Positions 747 to 17,018 of a DNA stretch of 58,326 nt are shown piece by piece. The notes beneath the pieces were generated by a model that saw only the letters and a list, made by a program, of their open reading frames with translations, was not told the DNA's origin and did no database searches. The stretch comes from an uncultured Candidatus Saccharibacteria bacterium (lineage in GTDB: Bacteria; Patescibacteriota; Saccharimonadia; Saccharimonadales; Saccharimonadaceae). Position numbers and translations under genes: made by a program. The stretch spans positions 1 through 58,326 of the forward strand of contig CAUTLS010000001.1 of assembly GCA_963539345.1 (NCBI GenBank), given 5' to 3'. Each line of letters starts with the position of its first letter. The first letter of the stretch is position 1.

Positions 747-3089
747 TTAGCTTTTCTTGCGAGTTGTGGATTTTTTGGTAGAAGCTTTCGACTTGGTTGA
801 CGCGCGGCCACGGCGAGTGGGTTTCGCGGGTGCGGCCTTCAGGAGTTCTAGAGCCTGCTCGTGAGTGATGGTTTTTGGGTCGGTGTCCTTGGGAATTTTA
901 GCGTTTTTAGTGCCGTCAGTGATATATGGACCGAAGCGGCCGTTAAGGACTTTGACGCCATCGCCAAAGTCAGCGATATTTTTCTCGGCTTCGGCCTTGA
1001 GTTTGGCGGCATAGAGTTCGCGAGCTTTCTCTAGGGTGATAGTGTGTGGGTCTTCAGGTTTGATGGAGACGAAAAGCTTGCCGACTTGGATGTACGGGCC
1101 AAAGCGACCGATATTGGCTTTGATGTCTTGACCGTCTTCGGTTTGGCCAACGACACGCGGTAATTTGAACATTTCTAAGGCTTGTTCCAGGGTGACTGTT
1201 TCGATTTTCGCGCCCTTTGGTAGCGGTGCAAAGCGTGGCTTGTCCTCGTCGTCAGTGGTGCCCAGTTGTAACATTGGGCCAAAGCGGCCGAAGCGTGCTA
1301 AGATTGGCTTGCCGGATTTTGGATCAATGCCGACTTCACGGTTAGCACCGACTTTGCTACGGTCGATACCGCCTGACTGTTCGATCAATTTGTGAAACGG
1401 CGTGTAAAATCCATGCAACATGGCGCTTTTGGCTAGATCAGCAGCGGCAATTTTGTCAAATTCGGTTTCGACATTAGCGGTAAAATCATAGTCAACTATT
1501 TGCGTAAAATGGTCGGTCAAAAAGTCGGCGATTAGTTCCCCGCTCGGCGTTGGGATGAGCTTGCCGCGGGTGGAGCCGGTTTTTTCCTGAACGATGTCAC
1601 GGCTGACTTCCTCGCCGTTGTAGCTGAGGACGATGACGTCGCGCGGCTGGCCTTCGCTGTCACCTTTTTCGACGTAGCCGCGGGTCTGCACGGTGTCGAT
1701 GATGGTAGCGTAAGTGCTTGGCCGGCCGATGCCGAGGTCTTCGAGCTTCTTGACCAGGGAGCCTTCGGTGTAGCGGGCCGGCGGCCGGGCGAAGGTTTGG
1801 CGAGCGGTGATGTCGTGGGTTTCGAGGGTGTCGCCGGTGTGGAGCTTTGGTAAGATTTCGTCTTTGCCACCGCCATAGACACGCAAGAATCCGTCAAAGG
1901 TGATGACTTCGCCTTTGGCTTCAAAAATAAGAGACGCTCCTTCGATGCCAATCGTCACCGTTGTTTTCTCCAATTTCGCTGGCGACATTTGCGATGCTAG
2001 GGTGCGGCGGCGGATGAGGTCGTAGAGTTTTTGGTCGTACTCGTTGGAAGTGACGGTTTCGCGGGTGATGTCGGTTGGGCGGATGGCCTCGTGGGCTTCC
2101 TGGGCGGAGGCGGATTTGGTCTTGAATTTGCGGACGGTGGAGTAATCCGGGCCGTACAGCCGCTTGATAAAGTCGGTTGCACTGGCGATGGCCTGCCCGC
2201 TCAGATTGACCGAATCAGTACGCATGTAGGTGATTTTACCATCCTGGTAGAGCCGCTGCGCTGAGGCCATGGTGGCTTTGGAGCTGAAGCCAAGTTTGGC
2301 GTTGGCTTCCTGTTGCAAAGTCGAGGTCGTAAACGGTGCGGCTGGGTTGCGAGTGCCGGGCGTCTTGGAGATGTCGCTGACAGTGAATGTGGCTAGCTTG
2401 AGACTAGTTAAAAACTCATGCGCGGCCTCTTCGGAATCAAATTTTTGATTGAGCTCGGCCTTGAATTCTTGATTATCATGGATGAATATGGCGGTCACCT
2501 TAAACTGTGAGCTGCCTGCAAATTTCATAATTTCTCGTTCGCGTTCGACCAGCAGCCGCACTGCCGGGCTCTGGACGCGGCCGGCTGACTTGCCACCGGG
2601 CACCTTTTGCCAGACCACGGGACTGAGCTCAAAACCAACCAATCGGTCGAGAATCTGCCGGGCTTGCTGCGCCTGCACCAGGTTCATGTCGACAGTGCGC
2701 GGATTTTTGATGGCATTGGTGATAGCGTCCTTGGTGATCTCGTGAAAAACGATGCGCTTGGTCGTCTCGATCGGTAAATCCAGCACCTTACAGAGGTGCC
2801 AAGCAATGGCCTCCCCTTCGCGGTCTTCATCGGTGGCCAGCCAGACATTGTCTTTACCAACGGCCTTAACGTTTTTCTTCAGCTCGCTGATGACTTTCTT
2901 TTTCTCTGGATCAACTTCGTAGACAGCAAAAAAATCATTCGCCACATCAATCGGCGGCGTGCCGTCCTTGGTCTTTTTGACGATTGAGCGGATATGTCCC
3001 ACGCTTGACAAAACGTGAAAATCATTGCCCAGATATTTCTCAATGGTTTTCGCTTTGGCTGGTGACTCGACGATGACGAGATTTTTCAT
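747..3089 (-). CDS. topA: DNA topoisomerase I with Topo_C repeats and Lys-rich tail
   Basis: LVIVESPAKAKTI, ATDEDREGE, SAGRVQS, ITYMRTDS; C-terminal GRFGPY repeats. Confidence 0.98.
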   Translation of the reverse strand: MKNLVIVESPAKAKTIEKYLGNDFHVLSSVGHIRSIVKKTKDGTPPIDVANDFFAVYEVDPEKKKVISELKKNVKAVGKDNVWLATDEDREGEAIAWHLCKVLDLPIETTKRIVFHEITKDAITNAIKNPRTVDMNLVQAQQARQILDRLVGFELSPVVWQKVPGGKSAGRVQSPAVRLLVEREREIMKFAGSSQFKVTAIFIHDNQEFKAELNQKFDSEEAAHEFLTSLKLATFTVSDISKTPGTRNPAAPFTTSTLQQEANAKLGFSSKATMASAQRLYQDGKITYMRTDSVNLSGQAIASATDFIKRLYGPDYSTVRKFKTKSASAQEAHEAIRPTDITRETVTSNEYDQKLYDLIRRRTLASQMSPAKLEKTTVTIGIEGASLIFEAKGEVITFDGFLRVYGGGKDEILPKLHTGDTLETHDITARQTFARPPARYTEGSLVKKLEDLGIGRPSTYATIIDTVQTRGYVEKGDSEGQPRDVIVLSYNGEEVSRDIVQEKTGSTRGKLIPTPSGELIADFLTDHFTQIVDYDFTANVETEFDKIAAADLAKSAMLHGFYTPFHKLIEQSGGIDRSKVGANREVGIDPKSGKPILARFGRFGPMLQLGTTDDEDKPRFAPLPKGAKIETVTLEQALEMFKLPRVVGQTEDGQDIKANIGRFGPYIQVGKLFVSIKPEDPHTITLEKARELYAAKLKAEAEKNIADFGDGVKVLNGRFGPYITDGTKNAKIPKDTDPKTITHEQALELLKAAPAKPTRRGRASTKSKASTKKSTTRKKS

Positions 3090-3147
3090 AACTTTATATT
3101 ATATCATATTGAGCGACCCATCAAATAATGGGCATTGGAGAACGCTA

Positions 3148-3789
3148 TTATTTCTGATCACTGTTCATCAGGTCTCGGGCGCGCTTAACGTATTGTCCAG
3201 CTGCCACTGCTGCTGCTGGAAGATAGGCTGCAAAGCCCAGTTTACCTAGTCCCTTCAGTGTTTTGGCGGTTTTCTGATAGCCCAGAGACTCTGCCGAACT
3301 ACCGATGATGAGTAATGTCGTGGTTGCTGCGAGCAGTGCGCTGCTGACTCGTCCTGCTTGAGTTGGGCGAAGTGGCTCGCGTTCATCAGGGAGTTGCTTG
3401 TGTTTGCATTCGGCAACAGCGGTAGCAATGGCTTTTGTTGATTCTAGGCCAGCAATTGTCGCCACCATGGCTTTTGATGTGGGGTCCTCTTGTGATAACT
3501 TCAGTAGTGCTGCTGCTCCAACGATTTTATCCCTGATGGGGTCTAGCTTGATGCCTAATTTTGACTGTTGGTTAAGGGCCCTCGCCAGTGAACCATCGAC
3601 TTTGTCTGACAACTCACCAGCAACTAGTGCTGCCATGCCCTTGAGGGAGTCGGCATGCTTGATACCGTATAGGCTGAGCATCGCACCTGCTACCGTCACA
3701 CCGTTCGGTAGTGTTACTATGTCGTCTGAGACAGGTTGTTCTTCTGGGGACTTGGTGGGACGAAACTGTGGTTGATGTTCTGCATTCAT
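3148..3789 (-). CDS. CDP-alcohol phosphatidyltransferase family protein
   Basis: SDKVDGSLAR...GIKLDPIRD matches the DxxDGxxAR...GxxxDxxxD signature; start moved to MNAEHQ. Confidence 0.8.
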   Translation of the reverse strand: MNAEHQPQFRPTKSPEEQPVSDDIVTLPNGVTVAGAMLSLYGIKHADSLKGMAALVAGELSDKVDGSLARALNQQSKLGIKLDPIRDKIVGAAALLKLSQEDPTSKAMVATIAGLESTKAIATAVAECKHKQLPDEREPLRPTQAGRVSSALLAATTTLLIIGSSAESLGYQKTAKTLKGLGKLGFAAYLPAAAVAAGQYVKRARDLMNSDQK

Positions 3790-3834
3790 TGACAGTATCA
3801 TAACACTATGGCGAAATATATTCAAGCATAGGCG

Positions 3835-4707
3835 TTATCGTAGCGTCCAGTTGTTTGCCCCGAGTGGCTTGATCACGCCATTAATCTCCAACATGGTGAG
3901 TGCGGTGGCAAAATCAGCTGCTGATAGTCCCGACTGTTTTTGTAGCTCATCGCCGTTGCGCACGCCATGTTTGATGAGCTTGGCGATGGTAATTTCAGCT
4001 GGTGTAGAACCAATTGGCAATGCGCATTGGGTGGGCTGGGTGGATTTCCAAGTTGGCGCAATGGCGTTCAAAATATCCTTGGCTGAGAGCGCTGGATTGG
4101 CACCTTGAAGCAGCAGGTTGTTACACCCTGCGGATAATGGGCTGGTGATGTTGCCGGGAACGACAAACACGTCACGCCCCTGCTCGAGGGCGTATGCTGC
4201 GGTATTGAGCGTACCGCTACGTTCAGCCGCTTCGGTGATGATGATAGCGTCTGCCAGCCCGCTAACCAGGCGGTTTCTTTGCAAAAAGCTCCATTTGCGT
4301 ATTTTCATGCCGTCGCCGCGCATCCATTCTGATAGGACTGCGCCGCCCTGGTTAATGATGTTCTCTGCTAATCCTCGGTTGCTACGCGGCGCAATATCTG
4401 GCAGTTCTGACGTGACGATACCGATGACTGTGCCGCCAGCATTGAGGGCTGCGGTCTGGGCGATGCTATCAACACCAAGCGCGAGCCCGCTGATGATAAT
4501 CACCCCAGCTTGTGCCAGGTCTGTGGCTAGCCGTTCGGTAACCTCGCGTCCATAGCTACTTGGCTTGCGTGTACCGACGATCGCGACTCGAGGAGCCTGG
4601 CTGTCTGGAAGTTTTCCCATAAAACATAACCTTTTTGGCGGCTTGGCAATATTGACCAACCTCTTGGTGAAAATATGTTCCTCTGGTAGTACTGTATTGA
4701 TTTCCAT
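3835..4707 (-). CDS. dprA: DNA-processing protein DprA
   Basis: AIVGTR, SGLALGVD, FLQRNRLVSGL, SGTLNTA, VPGNI; C-terminal winged helix. Confidence 0.95.
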   Translation of the reverse strand: MEINTVLPEEHIFTKRLVNIAKPPKRLCFMGKLPDSQAPRVAIVGTRKPSSYGREVTERLATDLAQAGVIIISGLALGVDSIAQTAALNAGGTVIGIVTSELPDIAPRSNRGLAENIINQGGAVLSEWMRGDGMKIRKWSFLQRNRLVSGLADAIIITEAAERSGTLNTAAYALEQGRDVFVVPGNITSPLSAGCNNLLLQGANPALSAKDILNAIAPTWKSTQPTQCALPIGSTPAEITIAKLIKHGVRNGDELQKQSGLSAADFATALTMLEINGVIKPLGANNWTLR

Positions 4708-4727
4708 GACTTTTATTGCAAAAAGTA

Positions 4728-4756
4728 TTGACACTATGTCAAATCTTTGCTATAAT
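4728..4756 (+). promoter_or_regulatory. Perfect sigma70 promoter TTGACA-N17-TATAAT
   Basis: TTGACA 4728-4733, 17-nt spacer, TATAAT 4751-4756 (also extended TGc). Confidence 0.85.
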
Positions 4757-4762
4757 GATACA

Positions 4763-5080
4763 CGATTGGTTGATCAGCGAGTTCAACCAAATGCACCTTA
4801 TACCCCCTATTCTAACTATATGTTAGGTTGCGCGCAATGGCATTAAGTATCTTACCCTCCACTTTTTGCGTTAAACGTTACGCGCATACTAACCCCTTTA
4901 ACTGCCCTTTTGATTAAGGCGACCTCTGTTTCATGGTGAGTACGCACTGTATTGACGATTCGTCAGGCGCCGGTCTTTTGGAGTTTTGACCGCAGACGCT
5001 TTGCTATGACATGGAAGCTCGGGTGGGTTGAAGGGTAACAAAGCACCAGGTGATGCCCACCCTTACCTGGTGCTTTTTTA
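4763..5080 (+). ncRNA. Putative structured non-coding RNA (~320 nt), family unassigned
   Basis: Lies between a consensus promoter and an intrinsic terminator; only very short ORFs; several complementary stems. Confidence 0.6.
5040..5079. terminator. Intrinsic terminator (probably bidirectional)
   Basis: AAAGCACCAGGT...ACCTGGTGCTTT followed by T-tract. Confidence 0.85.
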
Positions 5081-5095
5081 GTTGAGAAATTTATT

Positions 5096-5509
5096 TTATT
5101 TCGTTTGGTGTTTTTGACAATTTTTACAAATGCCTTCTAGTTCAAAGTGGTGTTTGACGACGGTAAACTGATGTTTGCGGCTGAGATAGCCGACAAGCTG
5201 CTCCAATTCTGGTGTTTGGATAGGCTCAGCGTTTTGACAGCGGATACAGTAGAGATGGTGATGATGTGGGATGAATGGTTCAGTGAGCTCGTAGTAATTT
5301 TTCCAGCCAATAGCAACAGCGCTGACGATGTGTAGCTGGTCAAAAGTGACAAGGGTGCGGTAGACGCTGGCTCGGTCAACGTTTTTGCACTTCTTTGCAA
5401 TGTCACTAATGGTTAGCGGAACAGCTGACCGTCGCAATACCTCAAATACTTGCTGGCGTGGTTTTGTCAGGCGCAAGTTGTGCTGTTTGAGTAGTTCGTC
5501 TATTGTCAT
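5096..5509 (-). CDS. Fur-family metalloregulator (Zur-like)
   Basis: LRLTKPR, ASVYRTL, HHHHLYCIRC, GICKNC. Confidence 0.93.
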   Translation of the reverse strand: MTIDELLKQHNLRLTKPRQQVFEVLRRSAVPLTISDIAKKCKNVDRASVYRTLVTFDQLHIVSAVAIGWKNYYELTEPFIPHHHHLYCIRCQNAEPIQTPELEQLVGYLSRKHQFTVVKHHFELEGICKNCQKHQTK

Positions 5510-5526
5510 ATTGTTGCAATTATATC

Positions 5527-5553
5527 ATTTATTGCGACAAATTTGCAATAAAT
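5527..5553. promoter_or_regulatory. Palindromic operator, putative Fur/Zur box
   Basis: ATTTATTGC-GACAAATTT-GCAATAAAT in the fur/NAS divergent promoter region. Confidence 0.7.
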
Positions 5554-5579
5554 GAGAGGGTCTGACATCATGAAGCATT

Positions 5580-6347
5580 ATGGATATAGCGATTAGAACA
5601 GTAATGAATTTGCATGAGTTTGCGCCATCACCAGATGTGAATGCGGCTTTTTCTGGTTTGGTGGCGGCAGTCGTGCAGGCAGCAGCTTTACCGAGTTGGT
5701 GCAATGAGGAGGTGCGTCGCGAAGTGCAACGCCGTTGCTCTCTGTCAGAATCAGAGATGGAAATGTATTGGTCGCGGCGAATTGCCAGCTCAGCTCGTCC
5801 GCAGCAAGAGCTGGAAAAGTTTTGGTATATTGACAATTACCGCGAGCTGGTGCGACGTGAGATTGGCCTACTGGGTGGCTCGGGTTTGTTTTTGAGTGAC
5901 AGCAGTCGGGTGGCGATGATTGGCAGCGGTCCCCTGCCTTTGACGGCTTGGTGCTTGTGGCGCCAGACAGGTGCGGCGGTTGATTTGGTGGACGTGGCGC
6001 CAGCTGCCTTGGCGCAGTCACGCGAATTGGCGCAGTTGATTGACTGGCCGGTTGGCAAGTGTCTGGTGGCGGATGGAGCGGCGGTAACTTTGCCGGACAG
6101 TACTTATGATGTGATTTATGTGGCTGGCCTGGCGGGCGATTCGGCTGAAGCCAAGCAGCAAATTATCGATAATATGTTGCCAGCGCTCCGGCCTGGCGGG
6201 CGGATCATCGTGCGCAGTGCACGTGGTGCGAAAACGTTGCTGTATCCAGCGTTTGACCCGAATAGTTTACAGCGCGTGCAGTTGTTGGTCGAGTATAATC
6301 CTGACGACGACATCATTAACTCGGTATATGTGTACAAGAAAGGCTAA
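5580..6347 (+). CDS. Nicotianamine synthase family protein (SAM-dependent)
   Basis: FWYIDNYRELVRRE, IGSGPLPLT, YDVIYVAGL, RSARGAKTLLYP, DDIINSV match NAS motifs. Confidence 0.9.
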   Translation: MDIAIRTVMNLHEFAPSPDVNAAFSGLVAAVVQAAALPSWCNEEVRREVQRRCSLSESEMEMYWSRRIASSARPQQELEKFWYIDNYRELVRREIGLLGGSGLFLSDSSRVAMIGSGPLPLTAWCLWRQTGAAVDLVDVAPAALAQSRELAQLIDWPVGKCLVADGAAVTLPDSTYDVIYVAGLAGDSAEAKQQIIDNMLPALRPGGRIIVRSARGAKTLLYPAFDPNSLQRVQLLVEYNPDDDIINSVYVYKKG

Positions 6348-6349
6348 TT

Positions 6350-7249
6350 ATGAATGATAAGATTGCACTATATCTGGTGAATGGCGCGCTGGGTGCGGGC
6401 AAAACCACGCTGGTTGATTTTTTGGTGCAGCAACCGGAGTTTGCTGGCGCGCGAGTGATTGAAAATGAATTTGCGTCGGAAAGTATTGACAGCTGTACAT
6501 TAGCACAACGCGTTGATGAACTAGCGACAATTGCTGGTGAGTGCATCTGTTGTAGTAGCGGCGAAGAGCTGGTTGATATTTTGCACAATTTTGCAATAAA
6601 CGGACGAGCACCAGTGATCATTGAGTCAACTGGTGTCGCTAATACTCTGCGGGTGGTTGAGAAATTACTGGCTGGTGATGTCTTTGAGCAGTATGATTTG
6701 CAGCAGTCGTTGTATGTTGTGGATGGAGCTGAAGCCAGGGCTGATGGCCTGACGGAGGCTTTGCTAGCGGAAGCTCGGGCGGCGGACATGGTATTGATCA
6801 GCAAGCTGGATTTACTGGCTGAAAATGACCGCCAGCAGCTCATTGAAACATTGTTGCAACAAGGGGTAACCAACGTTATGAATATGGATCACGGCAAATT
6901 TGATCTGGTCCAGCTTGGCGGCGAGTCGCACATTTTGGATTATTTACTACTGCACGAGCCTGTGAAAAACGCAGCTGAGTATGCTTTAAATTATAGCGTG
7001 ATTGATGTGGCTGAATTGGCTATTAGTGCTGAGAAGATTGAGAAGATCTGGGCTAGTTTGCGAGATAAATATGCTTTGCGGCGCATGAAAGGCGCGGTTG
7101 CTGATGGTGACGAGACATGTCACATCGAAGCAACGCCGCAGCAAATACAAGTCACGCGCGGTACCACTGACGAGTCATTAAAATTGGTTGTCATTGGTGA
7201 GCGGGCACGTGAGATTACGCGCGCAGTAATTATGAAGGAGTTGGGATGA
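6350..7249 (+). CDS. COG0523/CobW-family metallochaperone GTPase
   Basis: GALGAGKT, IENEF, CICC, IESTG, SKLDL; C-terminal RMKG...LVVIG. Confidence 0.9.
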   Translation: MNDKIALYLVNGALGAGKTTLVDFLVQQPEFAGARVIENEFASESIDSCTLAQRVDELATIAGECICCSSGEELVDILHNFAINGRAPVIIESTGVANTLRVVEKLLAGDVFEQYDLQQSLYVVDGAEARADGLTEALLAEARAADMVLISKLDLLAENDRQQLIETLLQQGVTNVMNMDHGKFDLVQLGGESHILDYLLLHEPVKNAAEYALNYSVIDVAELAISAEKIEKIWASLRDKYALRRMKGAVADGDETCHIEATPQQIQVTRGTTDESLKLVVIGERAREITRAVIMKELG

Positions 7250-7791
7250 TGGAAGGTACGAATAGCGCGAGAGCGGCGGTTGATAAGCTGCTTGATATGT
7301 ATGATGAGCATAAGGCTTTGATAGTAAAGATTGCTGCTGCGGAGCGCCGTTTGGCGTTGGCGAAATTGAACAATAGCAGTGGCGAACAGATACGGATAGA
7401 GCTGGACGACTTACGGCATAGCCAGCAGCAACTGTCTGATAATATGACGTTTGATACGCCACTAGTTTGGGTGATGTACAAGTTCGAGGCCTACCAGGAT
7501 GAGGCACAGCCGATTAAAACCATGCACGATTTTCGCTTGCACTGCTCGAAGCCCGGCTATATTTGCACTAAACGCTTCACATTTTTAAATACACACTTGT
7601 GCAATAATGGGCAATGTCTCCTGACGGACGACGAACGATACCCCGACAAAATGCTACTTAGTGAGATTTTTCCGCTCCTTGGCGAAATTGAACAAGATGA
7701 AGCTTTCTTGTCCAGTTGGCGCGCGCATGAGTACTATCAGGAGGATGGAATTGTTAAAAAATGGCAGGACTATGTGGACTGTAGAGGATAA
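7246..7791 (+). CDS. Hypothetical protein with Cys/His cluster
   Basis: Start overlaps the upstream stop codon; coiled-coil-like N-terminus; HCSKPGYIC...HLCNNGQC. Confidence 0.65.
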   Translation: MMEGTNSARAAVDKLLDMYDEHKALIVKIAAAERRLALAKLNNSSGEQIRIELDDLRHSQQQLSDNMTFDTPLVWVMYKFEAYQDEAQPIKTMHDFRLHCSKPGYICTKRFTFLNTHLCNNGQCLLTDDERYPDKMLLSEIFPLLGEIEQDEAFLSSWRAHEYYQEDGIVKKWQDYVDCRG

Positions 7792-7857
7792 CCTCTTGCC
7801 TACTGGTTTGAGGTAAGCGTAAGATTGCGCTGTATAGATATGCTATACTAAAGCAAT

Positions 7858-8931
7858 ATGAAACATCTCTGGCATTCACATCATCCATTTCGAATTTTTT
7901 GGTTTTCAGCACTATTGACATTGATTTTGGGCAGCTTGACGTTCATGCACTTGGGTCTTAGCGGCCTCTGGTTATTTGCTATTTTGGTGGTGTTGGAAGT
8001 TACGTTTAGCTTTGACAACGCGGTGATTAACAGCAAAGTGTTGGCTGGCATGAGCTCGGCATGGCAAAAGGTATTTTTGACGGTCGGCATCTTTGTGGCG
8101 GTCTTTGTGGTACGGTTTATTTTGCCAATTTTTATCGTTATGGTGGCGAGTGTTCATGGTTTCACCGAGGTGGTTGACTTGGCTATCAATAAGCCAGCCG
8201 AGTATGGCCATATTCTGCATGAGGCATCGCCGATGATTGATGCGTTTGGTGGGGCATTTTTGATCATGATTGGGTTAAGTTATTTCATCGACTACAACAA
8301 GCGCATTCACTGGGTTAGTCATGTTGAACCGTGGCTGGCTAAGGCTGGACGGTTTGAGAATTTCAAAGTATGTCTGATGTTGGCAGTGGCGACGATTTTG
8401 TATTTCACAGTGGAGCCGGCACATCAATCGCTCATTTTGATCTCATCTATTCTGGGGATTATGCTGCATATTGGGCTGGAATTGTTTGGCTCATTCTTTC
8501 ACGAGGATGATGCCAAGGCCATTAAAGTCAAGACTGGTTGGGCGGCATTCGCAAGCTTGCTGTACCTTGAGGTTTTGGATGCTAGTTTCAGTTTCGACGG
8601 CGTCATCGGTGCCTTTGCTATCACTAGTAGTGTCCTGTTGATTGTTGCTGGACTGGCATCTGGAGCTATTTGGGTGCGGTCATTGACGGTGTATCTGTTG
8701 CGCACGGGTGTGCTGAGTAAATATAAGTATCTGGAAAATGGCGCACACTGGGCAATTACGGCACTGGGCATGATGATGATCGCGAAGCTGTTTCATCTGG
8801 AGCTGCCAGAATGGGCAACGGGCGGTTTGGGGCTGTTGTTTGTGAGCTTGGCGGTCGGCAGTAGTATTTTGGAAGCACGAGCTATCGGGCTGCGAGAGGC
8901 AGCAGCAAAAATCAAACGCCGAAGACGATAA
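7858..8931 (+). CDS. DUF475 / TerC-like integral membrane protein
   Basis: LEVTFSFDNAVIN, LEVLDASFSFDGVIGAFAIT, YLENGAHWAI. Confidence 0.9.
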   Translation: MKHLWHSHHPFRIFWFSALLTLILGSLTFMHLGLSGLWLFAILVVLEVTFSFDNAVINSKVLAGMSSAWQKVFLTVGIFVAVFVVRFILPIFIVMVASVHGFTEVVDLAINKPAEYGHILHEASPMIDAFGGAFLIMIGLSYFIDYNKRIHWVSHVEPWLAKAGRFENFKVCLMLAVATILYFTVEPAHQSLILISSILGIMLHIGLELFGSFFHEDDAKAIKVKTGWAAFASLLYLEVLDASFSFDGVIGAFAITSSVLLIVAGLASGAIWVRSLTVYLLRTGVLSKYKYLENGAHWAITALGMMMIAKLFHLELPEWATGGLGLLFVSLAVGSSILEARAIGLREAAAKIKRRRR

Positions 8932-8953
8932 GCGTTTTGCAACGTTGTTGCAA

Positions 8954-9520
8954 TTAGAGTTTAATGCTCAGCGGCTCAATGGTGCTGTTGAGGAATGTCT
9001 CGGTCAGTTTGATTGATTCAGGGATTGTCCAGTCGCGGAGAATTGTTCGTTCGTCGGTGTTGAATTTACTGAGGACGAAATCGACATCGCCAATTTGCCG
9101 GCGTAGTAGATTGTCGGTGCCGATGCGAATATGCCAGAATTCATTGCCAACATGTCGGTGTAGTGACTTCAGTCCGTTATTGCCAGCGCTTTCACCACCC
9201 TTGCGGACACGAATTTTGCCAAAATCAAGCGCCGTGTCATCATGAATAATCAGGAGATCATCAAGCGTCAACTTATAAAAATCCATGAGCGCCCGCGCCG
9301 CAATACCAACCTCGTTGTAGTAGGTAGTTGGCTTGACGAGTAGGACTTTGCCTGGCGCTTCGGAGTGACTGATTTCAGCGATATCGGCAAAGAATTTGGG
9401 CTTGTTGCTAAATTGTGCACTCTGCTCTGCTGCCAATTGGTCAACCACCAAAAAGCCAGCGTTATGCCGGGTGTACGTGTACTTATCGCCAGGATTGCCG
9501 AGGGCCAGAATGACTTTCAT
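8954..9520 (-). CDS. pth: Peptidyl-tRNA hydrolase
   Basis: LGNPGDKYTYTRHNAGF, HDD, GNNGLKS, IRIG. Confidence 0.96.
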   Translation of the reverse strand: MKVILALGNPGDKYTYTRHNAGFLVVDQLAAEQSAQFSNKPKFFADIAEISHSEAPGKVLLVKPTTYYNEVGIAARALMDFYKLTLDDLLIIHDDTALDFGKIRVRKGGESAGNNGLKSLHRHVGNEFWHIRIGTDNLLRRQIGDVDFVLSKFNTDERTILRDWTIPESIKLTETFLNSTIEPLSIKL

Positions 9521-9564
9521 ACCTTCAGTATATCACCTCGGGCGTGATGGCGTATAATAGAGAC

Positions 9565-10536
9565 ATGGCGAAACGCGATGATGATTTGGAATTTAGTATC
9601 AATGCAGCATTTGACGAGGCACGGACGATTGTTGACAAAGTGCCGCTATACTTGGTAAATGGGTCGCTGGGCGCTGGTAAGACCAGTGTGTTGGAGTTCT
9701 TATTGCAACAACGTGACTTTACGGGCGCGCGAGTGATTGAAAATGAATATGCCAACGAAAATGTCGATGGCTACCGGCTGGAGGGGCTGGCAGACATGGT
9801 GACGACCCTGGCTGGCGACTGTGTTTGCTGCGGCTCGGAGGACGCACTGATCAAGATGCTGATGGATTTTAGTCGCTATTCCCCTGCACCGGTGTTTATC
9901 GAGGCGACGGGGGTGGCGCGGACCATGAATTTGGTGGAGCGATTGATCAGCGCCAAGATGTTTCATAAGTACGAGCTGATGCAGAGCTTTTATGTGATCG
10001 ATGCGCATGAGATTTTACGCGGTGTTGAGCCAGCACACGAAATTGAATTGCAAGCCGCAGATGCGATTTTGGTGACCAAGGAAGATTTGCTGAAGGACAG
10101 CGAACGGGCTGAATACGAAATAAAACGCCGCGCCCTGCCCTATGCCAAGGTGCTGAGCGCGCCACACGGCCAGTTTGACCTCAGTAAAATCACCACGCCG
10201 TCGGGGCTGTTGGCGTTTTTCGACCAATATGATGGCGAGCTCGCGGTGCCGGACAATCCAACCTATAGCGTGGTTGATTTGTCGACCACTACTGTTGGTG
10301 AAGCGGTGTTTGAGAAGCTATGGCCAGAGCTGTTTGCGGCATATGGCCTCAGACGTCTGAAGGGTTGTTTTGTAAACGACCGTGGTGAGCGGCGGCACAT
10401 TGAGGCGACGCAGTATCAGATTGAGATTCGTCATGCGCATTCGGATGAGGCGGCGAAAATTGTGCTGATCGGCGAGCGAGCAGATGAAATTACGCGTGAT
10501 GTTTTGCAAGCGCACATTCTCATGTATGGTGGATGA
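9565..10536 (+). CDS. COG0523/CobW-family GTPase (second paralogue)
   Basis: GSLGAGKT, IENEY, CVCC, IEATG, TKEDL; start set 6 nt after TATAAT. Confidence 0.88.
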   Translation: MAKRDDDLEFSINAAFDEARTIVDKVPLYLVNGSLGAGKTSVLEFLLQQRDFTGARVIENEYANENVDGYRLEGLADMVTTLAGDCVCCGSEDALIKMLMDFSRYSPAPVFIEATGVARTMNLVERLISAKMFHKYELMQSFYVIDAHEILRGVEPAHEIELQAADAILVTKEDLLKDSERAEYEIKRRALPYAKVLSAPHGQFDLSKITTPSGLLAFFDQYDGELAVPDNPTYSVVDLSTTTVGEAVFEKLWPELFAAYGLRRLKGCFVNDRGERRHIEATQYQIEIRHAHSDEAAKIVLIGERADEITRDVLQAHILMYGG

Positions 10537-11163
10537 TTAGCTTTCGTCCGCGGTGTCTGGGCTGTCGGCGGTGACGGTTAGGTAAAAATCACCGCTTGGC
10601 TCTTTCTGGTCTCCGGGCATGAAGGTGATGACAAAACCTTCGTTTTTTAGTTCAGTGAATAATGATGCACGAGCCGCAACCTTGCCAACTGCTTCTAGAA
10701 GCTTCTGAACGTTTTGTTCTTGTTCTTCTAATGTTGCTGGATCCCCTCCTGCCATTTTTAACATCTTAGCGCCAATGATAGCCTCGCTGAAATTTTGATA
10801 TTCTCCATCACCAGGTTCTGCAGTAATGGACACGGTTGCTTTTGTGCAGCCAGTAGCTTCAGGCATATCAATAACTGGCGAGGACATACCAGCGCGCTTA
10901 AGTAGAGGTGTATGATTACTGGTGTCTCCTATGTAGAGATCGACGTTCACTCTTGCTTCTTCGTCTTCGCCGCCTGGTCGCTCTACGGTGATATCTCCGA
11001 CTGCGCCGATACGCATAGTGCCGAGGGTGGATTCATTAGTGCCGAGGGTGGATTCAAAGAGAGGTGTTATGGCTACACAAAAGGTAGTTGTTTCGGGGTC
11101 TATGATATCAGCGGGAGTTGTTAACAGATCTTTTGCGGGGTATGTGTCTGGAGTATTGTTCAT
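10537..11163 (-). CDS. Hypothetical acidic protein
   Basis: 208-aa ORF with a TGATATAAT promoter 9 nt before the ATG. Confidence 0.7.
   Translation of the reverse strand: MNNTPDTYPAKDLLTTPADIIDPETTTFCVAITPLFESTLGTNESTLGTMRIGAVGDITVERPGGEDEEARVNVDLYIGDTSNHTPLLKRAGMSSPVIDMPEATGCTKATVSITAEPGDGEYQNFSEAIIGAKMLKMAGGDPATLEEQEQNVQKLLEAVGKVAARASLFTELKNEGFVITFMPGDQKEPSGDFYLTVTADSPDTADES
11016..11056. repeat. 21-bp tandem duplication (ESTLGT x2)
   Basis: TAGTGCCGAGGGTGGATTCA(T) repeated twice in frame. Confidence 0.9.
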
Positions 11164-11232
11164 AACTTTTTAATTATATCACTAATAATACAAAATGTCA
11201 ATAAATGCTGCTGAGGTTGTGGCTTGTGTTGT

Positions 11233-12681
11233 CTATATACTCTTCTCGGCGTTTTTGGCTTGTTTGTAGGCCTTGGTGACGGGTGCCAGGCCGCGGGCGA
11301 CGCGTTCGCGGTTGGCTTTCAGCTGTTTTTCGTCGCGGAAACTGAGTTTAATTGGTGTGCCGGCGAAGTTGAAGGCTTCGCGCAGGGTGCGTTCGAGGTA
11401 GCGTTTGTAGCTCCAGTGGACGAATTTCAGGTTGCTGCCGTAGATGACGAACCATGGCGGAGCCGTGTCGGTCTGGACGATGTAGCGGAGTTTTGGATGC
11501 GAGTTCTTTAGGCCGGCTGGCGGATGAGCGGCGACGGCTTTTTGCAAGAGGTCGTTGAGGACGCGGGTTTTGCATTCTTGGTGGCGACGGGTATGGATAT
11601 CGAGGGCGAGGTCGAACAATTTGGTGACGTTTTGGCCAGTGACCGATGAGGTAAAGATCAGTGGTGCGTATGGTGTGAATTTAAAATGATAACTAATTTG
11701 CGGTGCTAGCTCGTCGTGAGTGTAAGCGTCTTTGCCTTCGACGGAGTCCCATTTACTGACCACTAGGACGAGCCCCTTGCCTGCTTCGTCGATGATGCCA
11801 GCCAGGCGTTGGTCTAGCCCGACGTTTAATTCATTGACGTCCATCAGCAGAAAACAGATGTCGGCTTCGTTGATGGCTTGCATGGTGCGTAGGACTGAGA
11901 ACTTTTCGATGCCAGTCTCTTGCTTGCCTTGGCGGCGAATGCCGGCGGTGTCGAGTAGCTCGATGGTCTGGCCATGGTAGCGGACTTGGACACGGTTGAC
12001 GTCGCGGGTGGTGCCGGCGACGTTGGCGACGATGGCTTGCTGCTTGCCTGCCAGGGTGTTGAACAGATTGCTTTTGCCGACGTTTGGCCGGCCGATGAGG
12101 GCGACGCGGATGATGTCGTCAGGTGCGGTTTGAGTGGCTGGCGGGATAAGTTCGGCGATGTTGTCGAGTAGCTCAGAGATGCCGATGTTGTGCTCGGCGG
12201 AGGTTTTGATGATGGTTTTGATGCCGAGGCGTTTGAATTCGTCGGTGTGAAGTGAGCCTTTGAGGTCGGCTTTATTGGCGATGAGCAGGACGGGCTTGCC
12301 GCTTTTTAAGGCTTTTTTGGCGAGTTGGCGGTCGGCGTCTGATGGATAGACGGTGGAATCGACCATGACGAGGATGACATCGGCAGCGGCAGAGGCGTCG
12401 GCGATTTGGTCTTGGATGGTGGCTTCAAATTCATCTTCGGCGGGTTTGAGGCCGGCGGTGTCGATGAGCCAGAATTCGGCGGTTGTGCTCGCGTCAGTCA
12501 CAGCTTCCTCGGGAGATGAGGCGCGGCGCTTATATGAAACTTTGCCGACGACGTTGTCGCGGGTAGTGCCGGCTTCGCGGGCGACGATTGCGGTGCGGGC
12601 GCGCGTCAAGCGATTGAACAGTGAACTTTTGCCAACGTTAGCTTGGCCGATGATGGCGACGGTAGGTAATTTATGAGACAT
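11233..12681 (-). CDS. der: Ribosome biogenesis GTPase Der (EngA)
   Basis: Two GTPase domains (GQANVGKS and GRPNVGKS, DTAG x2); KH-like C-terminus. Confidence 0.97.
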   Translation of the reverse strand: MSHKLPTVAIIGQANVGKSSLFNRLTRARTAIVAREAGTTRDNVVGKVSYKRRASSPEEAVTDASTTAEFWLIDTAGLKPAEDEFEATIQDQIADASAAADVILVMVDSTVYPSDADRQLAKKALKSGKPVLLIANKADLKGSLHTDEFKRLGIKTIIKTSAEHNIGISELLDNIAELIPPATQTAPDDIIRVALIGRPNVGKSNLFNTLAGKQQAIVANVAGTTRDVNRVQVRYHGQTIELLDTAGIRRQGKQETGIEKFSVLRTMQAINEADICFLLMDVNELNVGLDQRLAGIIDEAGKGLVLVVSKWDSVEGKDAYTHDELAPQISYHFKFTPYAPLIFTSSVTGQNVTKLFDLALDIHTRRHQECKTRVLNDLLQKAVAAHPPAGLKNSHPKLRYIVQTDTAPPWFVIYGSNLKFVHWSYKRYLERTLREAFNFAGTPIKLSFRDEKQLKANRERVARGLAPVTKAYKQAKNAEKSI

Positions 12682-13214: not shown

Positions 13215-13931
13215 TCATTGACTTGGTGTCAATTTGCTTTCCTGAAATTCCCCGCGTTTGATGTCACCGAGAGTGTAGTTACCAAAGTCTGTCCGGTGGA
13301 GCTTGGCAACAGTGTAGCCGAGGGCAGCAAAGGTGCGGCGGATTTGGCGGTTGCGACCTTCGCTCATCTGGACGATCCAGCGGTGGTCGTCGCCGTCGTG
13401 CTGGCGTTCGAGCGTCAAGCGACTGGGCCCGTCAGGTAGTTGCACGCCAAAGTCATTGATCATTTGCCGGTGGAGCGGCTGTAGCGGCTGGTCGAGCGTC
13501 ACGAGATAGCGCTTGATTTTATAAAACGATGGGTGTGTCATCTGGTGGGCAAAATCCCCGTCGTTGGTGAGGAGGATGAGCCCAGAGCTGTCTTTGTCGA
13601 GGCGACCGACGGGCTTGAGGTGATGGAGGTTGGTTGGTAATAATTCGTAAATAGTCGGTACACCGCCTTGAGAGGCGCGCGAACAGAGGTAACCGACGGG
13701 TTTATGGAAGAGAATGAGCTGGTGGGTTTGGGCGGTGAGTCGTTTGTTGCCGTGGCGAATGATGTCAGTTGCGGTGATGCGTTGGCCAAGCTTGGCAGGC
13801 TGGCCGTTCACCGTGACCCTGCCCTGTTCGATCAGCTCGTCAGCCTGGCGGCGCGACACACCAAGCGCCAGCGCCACGAATTTGTTGAGGCGCTGGGCAG
13901 GTTTATGATTTGGTGCGGCATTGTCTGACAT
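13215..13931 (-). CDS. rRNA pseudouridine synthase (RsuA/RluB family)
   Basis: S4 domain; GRLDKDSSGL; EGRNRQIRR. Confidence 0.93.
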   Translation of the reverse strand: MSDNAAPNHKPAQRLNKFVALALGVSRRQADELIEQGRVTVNGQPAKLGQRITATDIIRHGNKRLTAQTHQLILFHKPVGYLCSRASQGGVPTIYELLPTNLHHLKPVGRLDKDSSGLILLTNDGDFAHQMTHPSFYKIKRYLVTLDQPLQPLHRQMINDFGVQLPDGPSRLTLERQHDGDDHRWIVQMSEGRNRQIRRTFAALGYTVAKLHRTDFGNYTLGDIKRGEFQESKLTPSQ

Positions 13932-14984
13932 TTATACGTGTGGTTGTGCTGGTGGAGGAGTTTGCGGCGCTTGTGGCGGTTGAGACGGGAGTGGATGCAG
14001 GACTGGGGCTGGTGGTATGTGAGTTGGCGCAGCATTTGCCAGTGGTTGAGGCGCTGGGCTGGCAACTGGTGCTGCTGGGATAGTCGGAGCTGGTTGTCCT
14101 GAAGTGGCGGCACTTTGCAAACTTTGTGGAGCTTGAGGCGTTGGTGTGGTAACAGGAATGTGAGTAGGCTCTGTCGGAGCTTCAGGAGCTGGAGCCGCTG
14201 TTAGGGTTGGAATAGTTTCTTCTGGGGTTGCATCAGGCTGCGGAGCTGGTGTTGCTTCCTCTGGGGCGTGCTCAGGTTCAGCCGGTTGCGGTTTGAGGCT
14301 TGGAATTCCCTCCAGTTCTTGTTCCATGAGCTTGGCAACATCCTCTGTTGGCGTCAGACTGGCGCCCTCAAGTGGTCGAATGACGCGTTCGCCTAGGTTG
14401 GCAGGACGCGGCGCTGAAGATGAGAAAGGTGCAGTCGGCTGCGGCAGTGTGGTTGGCGCTGGTGTAGCTGCAGCTTGCAGGGTTGGCTGCGGTGAGAGCG
14501 CTGAGACATCAGGCCGGACCGGCGGCATTTGCGGTGACTGTGGCATAGCTGGCGCTGGCTGAGGTGCTGCTGGCTGTGCGGCTGGTTGTGGTTGCGGCGC
14601 TGGCGTAAGTCCCGGAACATCACCCAAAACTTCGTGCACGGTGCGGACGACGTCTTCGATACCGACTTGGGATTTCACGAGATATCGGTCAGCTCCTAGC
14701 TGTTCGCCGCGGGCTCGTTGGTCTTCTGAAGACAAAGCAGTCATGATGATCACTTTGATGTCTTTGGTTTCGGTGGCAGAACGCAAAATGTCCAGCATGT
14801 CAAAGCCAGAAATTTTCGGCATCATCACGTCACTCAGGATGAGCGCTGGGCGTTCTTTGATGGCCATGGCGAGCGCTTCTTCGCCATCACCTGCGGACAC
14901 GATGTCGTATCCCTCTGCTAATAATCGTACGCCATAGATTTCGCGTAAACTTTTGTCATCTTCAACGAGTAAAATTTTTGTCAT
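13932..14984 (-). CDS. Response regulator: receiver domain plus long Pro/Ala/Gln-rich tail
   Basis: ILLVEDD, SDVMMP, YLVKS; ~230-aa low-complexity C-terminus. Confidence 0.9.
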   Translation of the reverse strand: MTKILLVEDDKSLREIYGVRLLAEGYDIVSAGDGEEALAMAIKERPALILSDVMMPKISGFDMLDILRSATETKDIKVIIMTALSSEDQRARGEQLGADRYLVKSQVGIEDVVRTVHEVLGDVPGLTPAPQPQPAAQPAAPQPAPAMPQSPQMPPVRPDVSALSPQPTLQAAATPAPTTLPQPTAPFSSSAPRPANLGERVIRPLEGASLTPTEDVAKLMEQELEGIPSLKPQPAEPEHAPEEATPAPQPDATPEETIPTLTAAPAPEAPTEPTHIPVTTPTPQAPQSLQSAATSGQPAPTIPAAPVASPAPQPLANAAPTHIPPAPVLHPLPSQPPQAPQTPPPAQPHV

Positions 14985-15038
14985 ATCTACTACCTACTAT
15001 ACGATATTATTATTAAAATTGCTATCATTCTTATGCTT

Positions 15039-17018
15039 TTATGAATTATTGGTTCTCCGCGGTATGCTGATGGCGCGACGGCTGGTCTCTAGATGATGTT
15101 CGATGTCGGCAAGCGTGGCGTGTTCTGGGCTGGTTGGTGTTGGCTGCGGCTGTGGTGGCTGGTTGGGCTGGACAGGCGGCTCAGTGACCGGGACAGGTTC
15201 GGTTAGCTGCGGAGGCTGTTCTATCGGTTGCTGAGGCTGAGGCGCCACTGGCGGCTCAGCGGGTGTGACGACAGAAGCTACTGGAGTTTGCGGTTGATGG
15301 TACTGAACTGGCGTCGGCTGCAGGGAGGCTTCTTTGTGAGCGGCTTCTTCTTTGGAGATTCGCGGTATCTCCAAAAAGAAAGTGCTTCCCTTGCCGTACT
15401 CGCTCTCGACACGTAAATCGCCCGACATGCTTTCGGCGAGTCGGCGAGACAGGTACAGTCCCAGACCAGTACCGCCGATTTCGCGAGTGGCTGAATTGTC
15501 AACCCGATAAAACTTTTGGAAAAGATGCGGAACGTCTTCTGCGGGAATCCCTAGGCCAGAATCCATCACGCTGACAACCACCTTTGACGAATCACCAGTG
15601 ACATCGACCACGACCTCGCCTTCTTTGGTGTATTTGATGGCGTTTTCTATGAGGTTGGCGGTGATTTCTCGGAAATGGTCGGGGTCGACAAAGGCATAAT
15701 AAATGGGCTGCAAATGCTGATCAGCGGAGTCTTTGGCCAACGCGTGTGGCCGGAAAGAATAGAGTAGATTTTTCTCAGCCGCTTTGTGTGCCAGACCTTC
15801 AAAGATGTCTGCCACAAAATCAGTCACATTGAATAGCTTTGGTTCATCTTTGAGACGTCCATCCTCGGCCCTACTGATATCCAGCAGGTCTTGAAATAAT
15901 CGGCCCAAGTGTTGAGCGGAGGCGTGCGCTTTGGTGATGAAGTCGCGAGCTTTGTCGTCAATTTGGGCGGTGGCTGGGTTGAGCGCCAGACCCAGATACC
16001 CCTCGATGGAAGCCACAGGCGTGCGCATTTCGTGGCTGGCAGTGGAGATGAACTCGGCTTGTTCTCGCTCCTCGGCGCGCTCTTTGGAGATGTCGCGAAA
16101 CACGATGATGACACCTTCCTTTTGTGGGCCTATGGGAGAACTGACGATGGTGATTGGTAGTCGTTTGTCTGAAGAGGTTTTGAGAAATAAGTTGTCGCTG
16201 TGGGTGGGCTGGTTTGAAGACAGTGCTTGAGCAACGGGATGTTTACCCTCTGGGATGTCGGATCCGTCTTTGAGCACCAGCTTGAGGACGCTTTGCCAAC
16301 TTAAGCCCAAAGCGTCGCCTTTGTCCCAGCCGATCATCTGTTGCGCGGCTGGATTGATGAGCTCAATGATACCGTTATTGGAAATAGCCATCACGCCGTC
16401 GTCGATGGTATTGATGACAACATCAGACTTACCTTCGGCAGAGGTTAGCCTATTTTCCAGTTCAGTAAATCGGTCATCAAGCTTTTTCTGCGGTTGGTAT
16501 CGCCATAGAACGATGCTTAGGACGAGTGGCATGATACCAAGCACTGCGCTGATGGTTATCTGTTCCAGCGTCAGTGGTGTTTCGAAATGAATCATGGCGA
16601 TGTGCGCCACGACTAACAAGATGATGCCACCAGTCAGCCACAGCCCAAATACCGCAGCAAAGACGGTCACCATGAGCCAGAGGCTGGTAAATGGAGAATA
16701 GATACCACCACTGGTAGCAATGAGTGCGGCGATGGTGATGATGAGCGACGCATAGGTGGCGCATGCCAGGTAGGCGCGTTGTTTTTTGGGCGTCCAAACA
16801 CAGAGACCAAGCGCCCAAACTGCAGACAATACGCTGATGGCGGCGGCTAGGTTGGTCACTGAATCACCAATAGTAAAGCGATAATTGCCAGGCAAAAAGC
16901 GAGCTGATGCGTATGTGAGGAGAATGAAGAGATTGACTAGTAGCGAGGCTTTGCTGAGACGGCGCAGCCAAAATTTGGAAAATGTTCTGTCAGACTGCCC
17001 CACCCTCGATTCTTTCAT
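15039..17018 (-). CDS. Membrane PAS-domain sensor histidine kinase
   Basis: Several TM helices, PAS, SHEMRTP, NLIENAIKY, DSGLG, GTGLGL; Pro-rich tail. Confidence 0.93.
   Translation of the reverse strand: MKESRVGQSDRTFSKFWLRRLSKASLLVNLFILLTYASARFLPGNYRFTIGDSVTNLAAAISVLSAVWALGLCVWTPKKQRAYLACATYASLIITIAALIATSGGIYSPFTSLWLMVTVFAAVFGLWLTGGIILLVVAHIAMIHFETPLTLEQITISAVLGIMPLVLSIVLWRYQPQKKLDDRFTELENRLTSAEGKSDVVINTIDDGVMAISNNGIIELINPAAQQMIGWDKGDALGLSWQSVLKLVLKDGSDIPEGKHPVAQALSSNQPTHSDNLFLKTSSDKRLPITIVSSPIGPQKEGVIIVFRDISKERAEEREQAEFISTASHEMRTPVASIEGYLGLALNPATAQIDDKARDFITKAHASAQHLGRLFQDLLDISRAEDGRLKDEPKLFNVTDFVADIFEGLAHKAAEKNLLYSFRPHALAKDSADQHLQPIYYAFVDPDHFREITANLIENAIKYTKEGEVVVDVTGDSSKVVVSVMDSGLGIPAEDVPHLFQKFYRVDNSATREIGGTGLGLYLSRRLAESMSGDLRVESEYGKGSTFFLEIPRISKEEAAHKEASLQPTPVQYHQPQTPVASVVTPAEPPVAPQPQQPIEQPPQLTEPVPVTEPPVQPNQPPQPQPTPTSPEHATLADIEHHLETSRRAISIPRRTNNS

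Follow-up and report, generated by a model that had tools for sequence, protein, structure and literature searches.

A nicotianamine synthase-family enzyme in an accessory, putatively metal-responsive gene cassette of oral Nanosynbacter

In a 58,326-nucleotide stretch of DNA from an uncultured Candidatus Saccharibacteria bacterium (assembly GCA_963539345.1, contig CAUTLS010000001.1; the whole stretch is called the window below), we found a gene of the nicotianamine synthase (NAS) family within positions 5096 to 10536, divergent from a Fur-family regulator gene and followed by genes for a COG0523-type GTPase (COG0523a) and for a partner protein called CysHis here. NAS, COG0523a and CysHis constitute an accessory cassette, which lies between fur and a conserved metal island. 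We consider that the cassette encodes a metal-starvation-induced, probably intracellular chelator-plus-chaperone module of oral Nanosynbacter, a reading to which we assign a probability of about 0.5.

The window is contig 1 of a genome of 739,667 bases in 71 contigs (89% complete). Its closest named proteins in the protein database came from TM7 oral taxa and Candidatus Nanosynbacter and are annotated at NCBI as 'nicotianamine synthase family protein'; the names Ca. Nanosynbacter sp. BB002 and Ca. N. featherlites stand on proteins 87% (NAS) and 93% (CysHis) identical to those of the window. The source is an oral Nanosynbacter (TM7), a genome-reduced Saccharibacterium, and the size of the genome and the named relatives agree with the Patescibacteria-like epibiont proposed in a preliminary description of this DNA. 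Seven genes occupy the region 5096-10536, and all genes named in that description were present as open reading frames (ORFs) at the coordinates stated; the NAS motifs quoted in it (DVNAAFSGLV, FWYIDNY, GSGPLPLT, RSARGAKTLLYP and DDIINSV) were all recovered in the translation. Median ratios of non-synonymous to synonymous divergence (dN/dS) against 33 to 61 related loci were 0.115 for NAS (61 pairs), 0.142 for COG0523a and 0.157 for CysHis, and because of these values the three are regarded as real genes under purifying selection and not as chance ORFs. Decay to pseudogenes was likewise ruled out, by intact ORFs in 61 relatives together with the dN/dS of 0.115 to 0.157.

The NAS-family enzyme

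The NAS gene (5580..6347, + strand) encodes a protein of 255 amino acids that comprises the NAS core only. The search with the Pfam NAS profile (PF03059), proposed in the preliminary description, gave a match over nearly the full length at 148.5 bits (cut-off 27.1, E 3.2e-43), in which residues 7-254 lay on profile positions 18-271 of 276; the score was 149.9 bits when the whole genome was searched. A generic methyltransferase was also considered as the identity of this protein and was rejected, the methyltransferase models scoring 16 to 29 bits versus 148.5 bits for NAS. With the NCBIfam model of the bacterial NAS-like enzyme CntL (NF033601), only 16.1 bits were obtained against a cut-off of 350. 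The best solved structure was the archaeal enzyme MtNAS (43.9 bits, E 1.6e-10) and the CntL chains followed at 19.2 bits (E 0.0056), while the plant NAS of Bertholletia excelsa was 32% identical to the window protein and scored 114 bits. By score the window enzyme is thus of the plant/archaeal type and not of the CntL type, and in this respect the earlier impression of a protein more like plant/fungal NAS than CntL was borne out; in the tree, it stands outside the plant clade.

At E <= 0.001, 996 NAS homologs were collected among 1.84 billion cluster representatives, the plant Bertholletia NAS being one of them, and the organism names looked up for 30 representatives of the homolog clusters include Myceligenerans, Pseudonocardiales and Bertholletia. 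A maximum likelihood tree of 53 rows, made by quick search with Shimodaira-Hasegawa-like approximate likelihood ratio test (SH-aLRT) support only, placed the window NAS inside a well-supported bacterial clade consisting mostly of metagenome proteins, apart from the clade that unites plant and actinobacterial enzymes. Taxonomic names are sparse in the 30-row clade around the window protein.

The residues of the active site were compared with those of the solved and the plant enzymes. E61 and Y87 of the window protein align with E81 and Y107 of MtNAS, which we take to be its catalytic residues and whose numbering agrees with the alignment; the database entries of the E81Q mutant carry Q in that column. 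E57 and E61 align with plant E73 and E77, and over 25 diverse homologs 16 columns were invariant, including E57, E61 and Y87. According to the available part of a study of the plant enzyme, AtNAS1 needs E77, Y106, E73 and a VGMD motif (PMC10248798). The residues specific for nicotianamine are in a mixed state in the window protein, in which the E73 equivalent E57 is kept and the VGMD equivalent is changed to AGDS. Judged by profile and residues, the general NAS machinery is present and the enzyme is a true member of the NAS family.

Two further features were seen among the homologs. The proteins P0183 (435 aa) and P0228 (445 aa) are natural fusions of NAS with a C-terminal GNAT acetyltransferase domain, a hint that some bacterial NAS products may be N-acylated. 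In addition, a metagenome-assembled genome (MAG) of Micrococcales (L098, GC 66%) carries a lone NAS gene at 7001-7789 whose product is nested within the oral Saccharibacteria clade, as sister to the TM7x-like type (SH-aLRT 87, within a six-row clade at 99) and 56% identical to the TM7x-like protein. This placement suggests gene transfer, in either direction, between the epibionts and the phylum to which their hosts belong.

The cassette and its partner proteins

COG0523a (6350..7249, + strand; 299 aa) matched PF02492 at 92.6 bits and carries the motif GECICC. YjiA was its best solved relative (66.3 bits), and the Walker A (GxxGxGKT), ENE, CxCC, ExTG and xKxD elements were invariant in the COG0523 alignment. 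A paralog further downstream, COG0523b (9544..10536, + strand; 330 aa, motif GDCVCC, PF02492 88.3 bits), is 42% identical to it. For both paralogs the best NCBIfam model was of the YjiA type and the next ZigA or CobW, all of them below cut-off, and the CobW_C domain (PF07683) was reported for neither of the two at E <= 0.01; a homolog from locus L103 that aligns over the full length has 34.4 bits with this profile. COG0523a, the cassette-specific paralog, is predicted from its motifs to be a metallochaperone-type GTPase, with the CxCC metal-site motif.

The third gene, CysHis (7246..7791, + strand; 181 aa), has a start that overlaps the stop of COG0523a (ATGA), belongs to no Pfam or NCBIfam family, and its database relatives are all nameless or 'hypothetical'. 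Across seven diverse members H99, C100, C107, K109 and R110 were invariant, together with several aromatic residues. The invariant Cys and His residues are therefore only H99, C100 and C107, and the earlier label of a Cys/His protein does not hold in the sense of one generically rich in these residues. CysHis adjoins NAS in loci whose NAS is 57%, 44%, 33% and 32% identical to that of the window, and these loci fall at three distinct places in the NAS tree. The genes of L103 overlap and run NAS-COG0523-partner-Fur; this locus lies in a MAG of 1.2 Mb and 40% GC that bears the label Gammaproteobacteria. In L102, a low-GC Saccharibacterium, a CooC/ParA-type P-loop ATPase (PF01656, 6128-6964, + strand) precedes the NAS/partner pair instead of COG0523, so that, to judge from the families, one metallochaperone-type NTPase is exchanged for another. 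Nine NAS homologs of at least 340 aa were searched for fused domains and one of them carried the CysHis domain: the protein P0220 (437 aa) consists of NAS (17-283) followed by the CysHis C-domain (294-433; 134 bits, E 1e-40) and keeps its H, C, C, K and R residues. Because of the gene linkage across deep divergence and this natural fusion, CysHis is indicated to work with NAS, and as a conserved and sometimes fused NAS partner it appears to be the most informative part of the cassette.

The structure of CysHis was predicted from a 7-sequence alignment with a predicted local distance difference test (pLDDT) score of 91.4 and a predicted template modelling (pTM) score of 0.86, and consists of a long N-terminal helical hairpin followed by a compact helical C-domain. 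No match at E <= 0.001 was obtained when this model was searched against the PDB with Foldseek (best 0.32). When the whole model was aligned with VIA-align, only the hairpin (1-73) was matched, by generic helical hairpins, with Z values (up to 9.4) that count as noise for helical models; for the C-domain folded alone (pLDDT 88.6) the best Z was 3.1 and none of 48,161 chains reached Z >= 5. The modelled C-domain thus resembles no solved fold.

A complex of the three cassette proteins was also predicted. CysHis scored 0.52 against NAS plus COG0523a, versus 0.14 for the best of three controls, and the score went to 0.00 after COG0523a had been replaced and NAS kept; the runs agreed in at least 69% of the contacts, and the pLDDT of the partner was at least 80. 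Of 80 solved complexes, 58 reach the mark used for such predictions, as do 2 of 110 mismatched pairs; at scores of 0.60 or less it is reached by 7 of those 80 and by both mismatches. The contact of CysHis, if real, would thus be with the COG0523a GTPase, as the model weakly suggests.

The distribution of the cassette was followed by genome comparisons. Within the genus, PF03059 was present in 15 of 36 further genomes, and it was found in none of 24 genomes that represent as many other families of the order; among 400 evenly drawn other genomes of the phylum it was above cut-off in one, which again belongs to the same genus. In the NAS-less genomes of the genus, the site reads, in all five examined, DprA, Fur, DUF1980 and an ArsP-type permease, all leftward, then DUF475 rightward, Pth leftward and COG0523b rightward. 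A scan of species-representative genomes gave, from the best 80 of 217 relatives, 78 loci, 9 of which were too short downstream, and the cassette was counted on the remaining 69. NAS, COG0523a and CysHis occur together in 54 of them, the ArsP/DUF1980 permease pair being still in place in 36 of these; NAS and CysHis with a different NTPase arrangement were found in 2, and NAS alone in 13 (8 TM7x-like loci, 3 close relatives and 2 non-Saccharibacteria). Median synonymous divergence (dS) was 0.44 to 0.61 for the cassette genes versus 0.86 to 1.50 for the flanking fur, DUF475, pth and COG0523b (loci L027-L097), and the identity in many genomes is about 89% for NAS and about 56% for the adjacent DprA. 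The lower dS of the cassette fits a spread by recombination, or recent exchange, between Nanosynbacter species.

The genes downstream of the cassette belong to the island. The DUF475/TerC-family membrane protein gene (7858..8931, + strand; PF04332 292.1 bits vs a cut-off of 27) starts 66 bp past the end of the cassette, and the peptidyl-tRNA hydrolase gene pth (8954..9520, - strand; PF01195 163.7 bits, TIGR00447 157.7 bits and above cut-off), which had gone unmentioned in the preliminary description, is a housekeeping bystander within the island. Because DUF475 and COG0523b hold the same position in NAS-less genomes of the genus, they form a conserved island that is independent of NAS, and their proposed role as parts of the NAS system was not upheld.

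Elsewhere in the genome, contig C15 carries at 13487-15206 (- strand) a diverged ArsP/DUF1980 pair, 52% and 26% identical to the TM7x-like pair, and none is present at the island; no operator-like site was seen upstream of the C15 pair. Downstream of COG0523b, the window encodes at 10537-11163 (- strand) a 208-aa protein without family and with an internal NESTLGT repeat. Its identity ranges from 45% to 100% across genomes in which the Der and COG0523b on either side are at least 88% identical, and its gene is thus locally hypervariable.

Regulation and the supply of S-adenosylmethionine

The Fur-family metalloregulator (5096..5509, - strand; 137 aa) matched PF01475 at 66.2 bits and carries an HHHH-x2-CxxC motif and a C-terminal CxxC motif. 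As PF01475 gave one match in the genome, it is the sole Fur-family gene found there. The preliminary description had proposed control by Zur, an identity that was not confirmed: of the solved structures, Fur proteins like those of C. jejuni and H. pylori scored best (53.5 to 49.1 bits), followed by Zur/FurB (38.6) and PerR (38.5), and among the NCBIfam models Bacillus-type Fur reached 64.9, PerR 55.2 and Zur 23.4 (cut-off of the latter 167), all below their cut-offs.

Within the 70-bp spacer between fur and NAS, a candidate operator was identified as an inverted repeat, TATTGCGA-N5-TTGCAATA, at 5530..5550. It overlaps, as far as the sequence can be read, the fur promoter (5519..5548, - strand), for which the promoter scan gave TTGCAA-18-TATAAT with a TG and 10 of 12 matches. 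The operator ends about 14 nt before the putative extended -10 of the NAS operon, TGACATCAT (TGnCATCAT; 5563..5571, + strand), an element which was read from the sequence and not listed by the promoter scan; relatives carry TGnCATTAT or a CATACT element at the equivalent position. Given this position, the NAS mRNA may be leaderless or nearly so, with its start near 5580. The operator shows no likeness to the classical Fur box or to the Zur boxes.

The conservation of the palindrome was examined in the 79 loci that contain fur and have 100 nt or more of sequence before it. The strict palindrome was present in 48, a one-base variant in 29 (including the window) and neither in 2, and the palindrome was found upstream of fur in NAS-less genomes as well. 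The 23-bp site TTATTGC-N9-GCAATAA occurs once in the 740-kb genome, and with up to 2 mismatches 5 sites were counted versus 2.6 in shuffles; the 8-mer half-site occurs 37 times versus 24.8 expected, with no pattern at the DUF475 or COG0523b promoters. By these palindrome and half-site searches of the genome, no operator-like site was found upstream of COG0523b, and a larger regulon did not emerge. At the operon promoter, the distant modules L102 and L103 carry palindromes of their own, TGCAAC-N3-GTTGCA. A Fur-family repressor very probably controls both fur and the NAS operon through the conserved palindrome at the fur promoter; of the regulation claimed at the outset, the Fur-family control of the NAS operon was thus retained and the assignment to Zur dropped.

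A further transcription unit without annotation was noticed between dprA and fur (4728-5079, + strand). It has a perfect TTGACA-17-TATAAT promoter with a TG (4728-4756) and ends in a strong hairpin (stem 5043-5073) followed by a T-run (5074-5079). The fold of its transcript (about 320 nt) is better than that of 100 of 100 shuffles (z -2.77), its ORFs do not exceed 36 aa, and no Rfam match at E <= 0.01 and no tmRNA or tRNA call was obtained for it; Rfam gave no match across 3000-12000 of the window, and ARAGORN none in 4600-5200. The promoter and terminator are also present in the NAS-less relative L110, and an operator half-site, TATTGCAA, lies at 4714, just upstream of the -35. The unit is a candidate for a new small RNA.

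The enzyme uses S-adenosylmethionine (SAM), and the genes for the supply of this substrate and the removal of its products were searched in the own genome (G000) and in five near-complete genomes of the same genus (G003, G006, G009, G011 and G030). The C-terminal domain of the SAM synthetase MetK (PF02773) was found neither in the own genome (0/1) nor in the five (0/5), with the control positive in 10 of 14 reference genomes, and the archaeal SAM synthetase (PF01941) was likewise not found in the five (control 4/14). In view of these negative searches for a SAM synthetase, the cell is apparently unable to make SAM and its NAS would have to run on scavenged SAM; the earlier remark that the organism spends SAM understated the case. 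The family PNP_UDP_1 (PF01048), to which the nucleosidase for methylthioadenosine (MTA) and S-adenosylhomocysteine (SAH) and the MTA phosphorylase belong, was also not found in the five genomes (control 14/14), and these cells thus have no obvious route to remove MTA or SAH.

As regards transport, the conserved core (NAS, NTPase, CysHis and Fur) contains no membrane protein. The opine dehydrogenase CntM and transporters had been described as not adjacent, and indeed neither is in the NAS operon, and no CntM gene lies within 5096-10536. The CntM profile PF10100 gave no match in the own genome (0/1) or in five complete NAS-bearing genomes (0/5), in a search whose control was silent as well (0/14). 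OPT/YSL transporters were found in none of five genomes, and ZnuA was not found in the own genome.

Proposed mechanism, alternatives and meaning

Taken together, the cassette may work as follows. When metal is plentiful, the sole Fur-family repressor would bind the single operator at the fur promoter, upstream of the NAS -10, and when metal is short fur and the NAS operon would both be derepressed. The operon would then yield three cytoplasmic proteins, namely the core NAS, the CxCC COG0523 GTPase and the helical His-Cys-Cys protein. From SAM, which would come from the host bacterium, the core NAS would transfer aminobutyrate units and so form a nicotianamine-like aminocarboxylate chelator. 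CysHis would work with NAS and probably dock on the GTPase, as the structure prediction weakly suggests, and together they would hold the scarce metal, most likely zinc, or pass it to client proteins. CxCC COG0523 genes beside Fur-family genes are typical of zinc regulons. An intracellular role is probably to be preferred over secretion, in view of the core without membrane protein and of the lack of OPT/YSL and ZnuA in the genomes searched.

Several observations weigh against this reading. The plant VGMD motif (206-VGMD-209 in AtNAS1) reads AGDS in the window NAS, and because of this change the product may differ from nicotianamine itself. MTA strongly inhibits NAS in vitro, as stated in the available part of PMC10248798, and no MTA nucleosidase was found. 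The 8 TM7x-like loci and 3 close relatives keep NAS without COG0523a and CysHis, so that NAS does not need these partners. The regulator is closer to solved Fur than to Zur; the operator is unique and nothing links COG0523b or DUF475 to the same regulator; and the complex prediction is weak by the calibration of the method itself. The membrane proteins beside the cassette (DUF475, and the ArsP/DUF1980 pair in 36 loci) are uncharacterised in substrate and could export the product. Finally, a search of sequencing runs gave 22 rows with at most 0.23 of the sampled words, in which the sole recorded RNA was an algae metatranscriptome (0.07) and the other rows were contig sets whose type was guessed.

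The last but one of these points leads to an alternative in which the product is a secreted metallophore, exported to take up extracellular metal, or metal on the surface of the host cell, and then re-imported, with DUF475/TerC or ArsP/DUF1980 as the transporter. There is precedent for it, as the characterised bacterial NAS-like systems (staphylopine, pseudopaline, yersinopine) are all secreted metallophores in the portions of the sources at hand (PMC7438024, 10.1101/641969), and the positions of the genes agree with it, DUF475 following the cassette after 66 bp and NAS directly in 3 loci, and the permease pair (ArsP_1 and DUF1980) standing beside the cassette in 36 of 69 loci. However, the membrane genes keep the same position in NAS-less genomes and so are not specific to NAS, the operons of the distant modules L103 and L099 contain no membrane gene, and the searches for OPT/YSL, ZnuA and CntM, the last with a silent control, were negative as given above; two cytoplasmic metal-handling partners also fit an intracellular role better. 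Secretion is therefore judged unlikely, and scavenging from the host, which the preliminary description had offered as one option, is possible and gained no specific support.

Somewhat less likely still, the same module may be tuned to iron or another metal under a true Fur, Mur or Nur and serve the handling of Fe, Ni, Co or Mn. Nicotianamine can bind Fe, Ni, Cu, Mn and Zn, and Co- and Fe-related proteins are known within COG0523. The regulator scores given above (iron Fur structures at 53.5 to 49.1 bits vs Zur/FurB at 38.6, and NCBIfam Fur at 64.9 vs Zur at 23.4) favour this view, although they all lie far below the family cut-offs and so assign no metal, and both COG0523 paralogs score best with the YjiA-type model and then with ZigA or CobW, again below cut-off. 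It is very improbable that the NAS-like enzyme makes no free chelator and instead loads the aminobutyrate (aminocarboxypropyl) group of SAM onto a different acceptor, which might be the partner protein or another macromolecule. The acceptor cannot be read from the sequence, the VGMD motif is not kept, and in P0220 a partner domain with invariant Lys and Arg stands directly behind NAS; against this, the full-length PF03059 match, the catalytic residues and the kept E73 equivalent point to the known small-molecule chemistry, and NAS stands alone in 13 of 69 loci.

Returning to the chelator-plus-chaperone module, a more specific form of it may be put forward tentatively, a pathway of three parts, with a nicotianamine-like ligand serving as working partner to a metallochaperone. 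The CysHis domain could take the metal-ligand complex from NAS and pass the metal to the GTPase for insertion into clients. It could also sense metal and switch NAS on and off, as a separate protein playing the part of the Cys-rich C-terminus by which plant NAS inhibits itself.

With plant and fungal NAS (AtNAS1), the window enzyme shares the full-length PF03059 match, the GSGPLPLT SAM-binding motif, the E73 and E77 equivalents, the Tyr and the core-only form, and the product of plant NAS acts mainly inside cells, as is proposed here. It differs in its separate bacterial clade, in AGDS for VGMD and in its Fur-family-controlled operon with COG0523 and CysHis, and its organism has no detected SAM synthetase or MTA nucleosidase. 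MtNAS (PDB 3fpe, 3fpf and 3o31), the best solved relative with E81 and Y107 aligned, is likewise prokaryotic and without CntM; however, only residues 59-228 align with it, its glutamate acceptor is not transferable to the present enzyme (PMC10248798, available part), and the accessible portions of the NAS papers describe for it no partner genes like COG0523a and CysHis. The Cnt operons (CntKLM of staphylopine, pseudopaline, yersinopine and bacillopaline) resemble the present operon in having a bacterial NAS-like enzyme, repression by metal and SAM as aminobutyrate donor, and differ in the enzyme, which scores far below the CntL cut-off here, and in their further genes, as the window operon has no CntM, racemase, exporter or importer and two cytoplasmic partners instead. 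Zur-regulated COG0523 genes (YciC/ZagA, ZigA and the YeiR/YjiA type) offer a CxCC GTPase beside a Fur-family gene, and YjiA is the best solved relative; the window proteins score far below the ZigA and YjiA cut-offs, have no detected CobW_C, and are coupled to NAS and CysHis in a manner not described in the literature searched.

According to the accessible part of PMC12454661, some fungi and actinobacteria are the only organisms other than land plants in which NAS is known, and the available portion of a zincophore survey (PMC7438024) makes no mention of Saccharibacteria, Patescibacteria, TM7 or COG0523. Literature searches on NAS in Saccharibacteria/TM7, on zinc in Nanosynbacter, on DUF1980/TIGR03943 and zinc, and on the SAM supply of TM7x returned no paper on this system, although the supplementary tables of NAS phylogeny papers may list such sequences. 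The enzyme family had already been named in the annotation; new here are the NAS-COG0523a-CysHis cassette, the NAS-fused partner domain without likeness to a solved fold, the conserved operator at fur, and the negative searches for MetK and an MTA nucleosidase.

The genomes of oral Saccharibacteria have lost nearly all biosynthesis, and these bacteria live on Actinomyces-type hosts where the human host withholds metals. That a chelator-synthesis cassette is kept in such cells, spreads horizontally and would run on scavenged SAM suggests that metal supply is a real bottleneck of epibiotic life. A natural comparison set exists for the study of this system, with NAS alone (TM7x-like), the full cassette and no NAS, and Nanosynbacter strains are in culture. 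The cassette joins two fields that are usually separate, those of nicotianamine-type ligands and of COG0523 metallochaperones, through a domain that can be fused to NAS. If true, the three-part pathway would bring a new protein family and a new link from small-molecule chelators to GTP-driven metal delivery, in ultra-small bacteria that steal their SAM.

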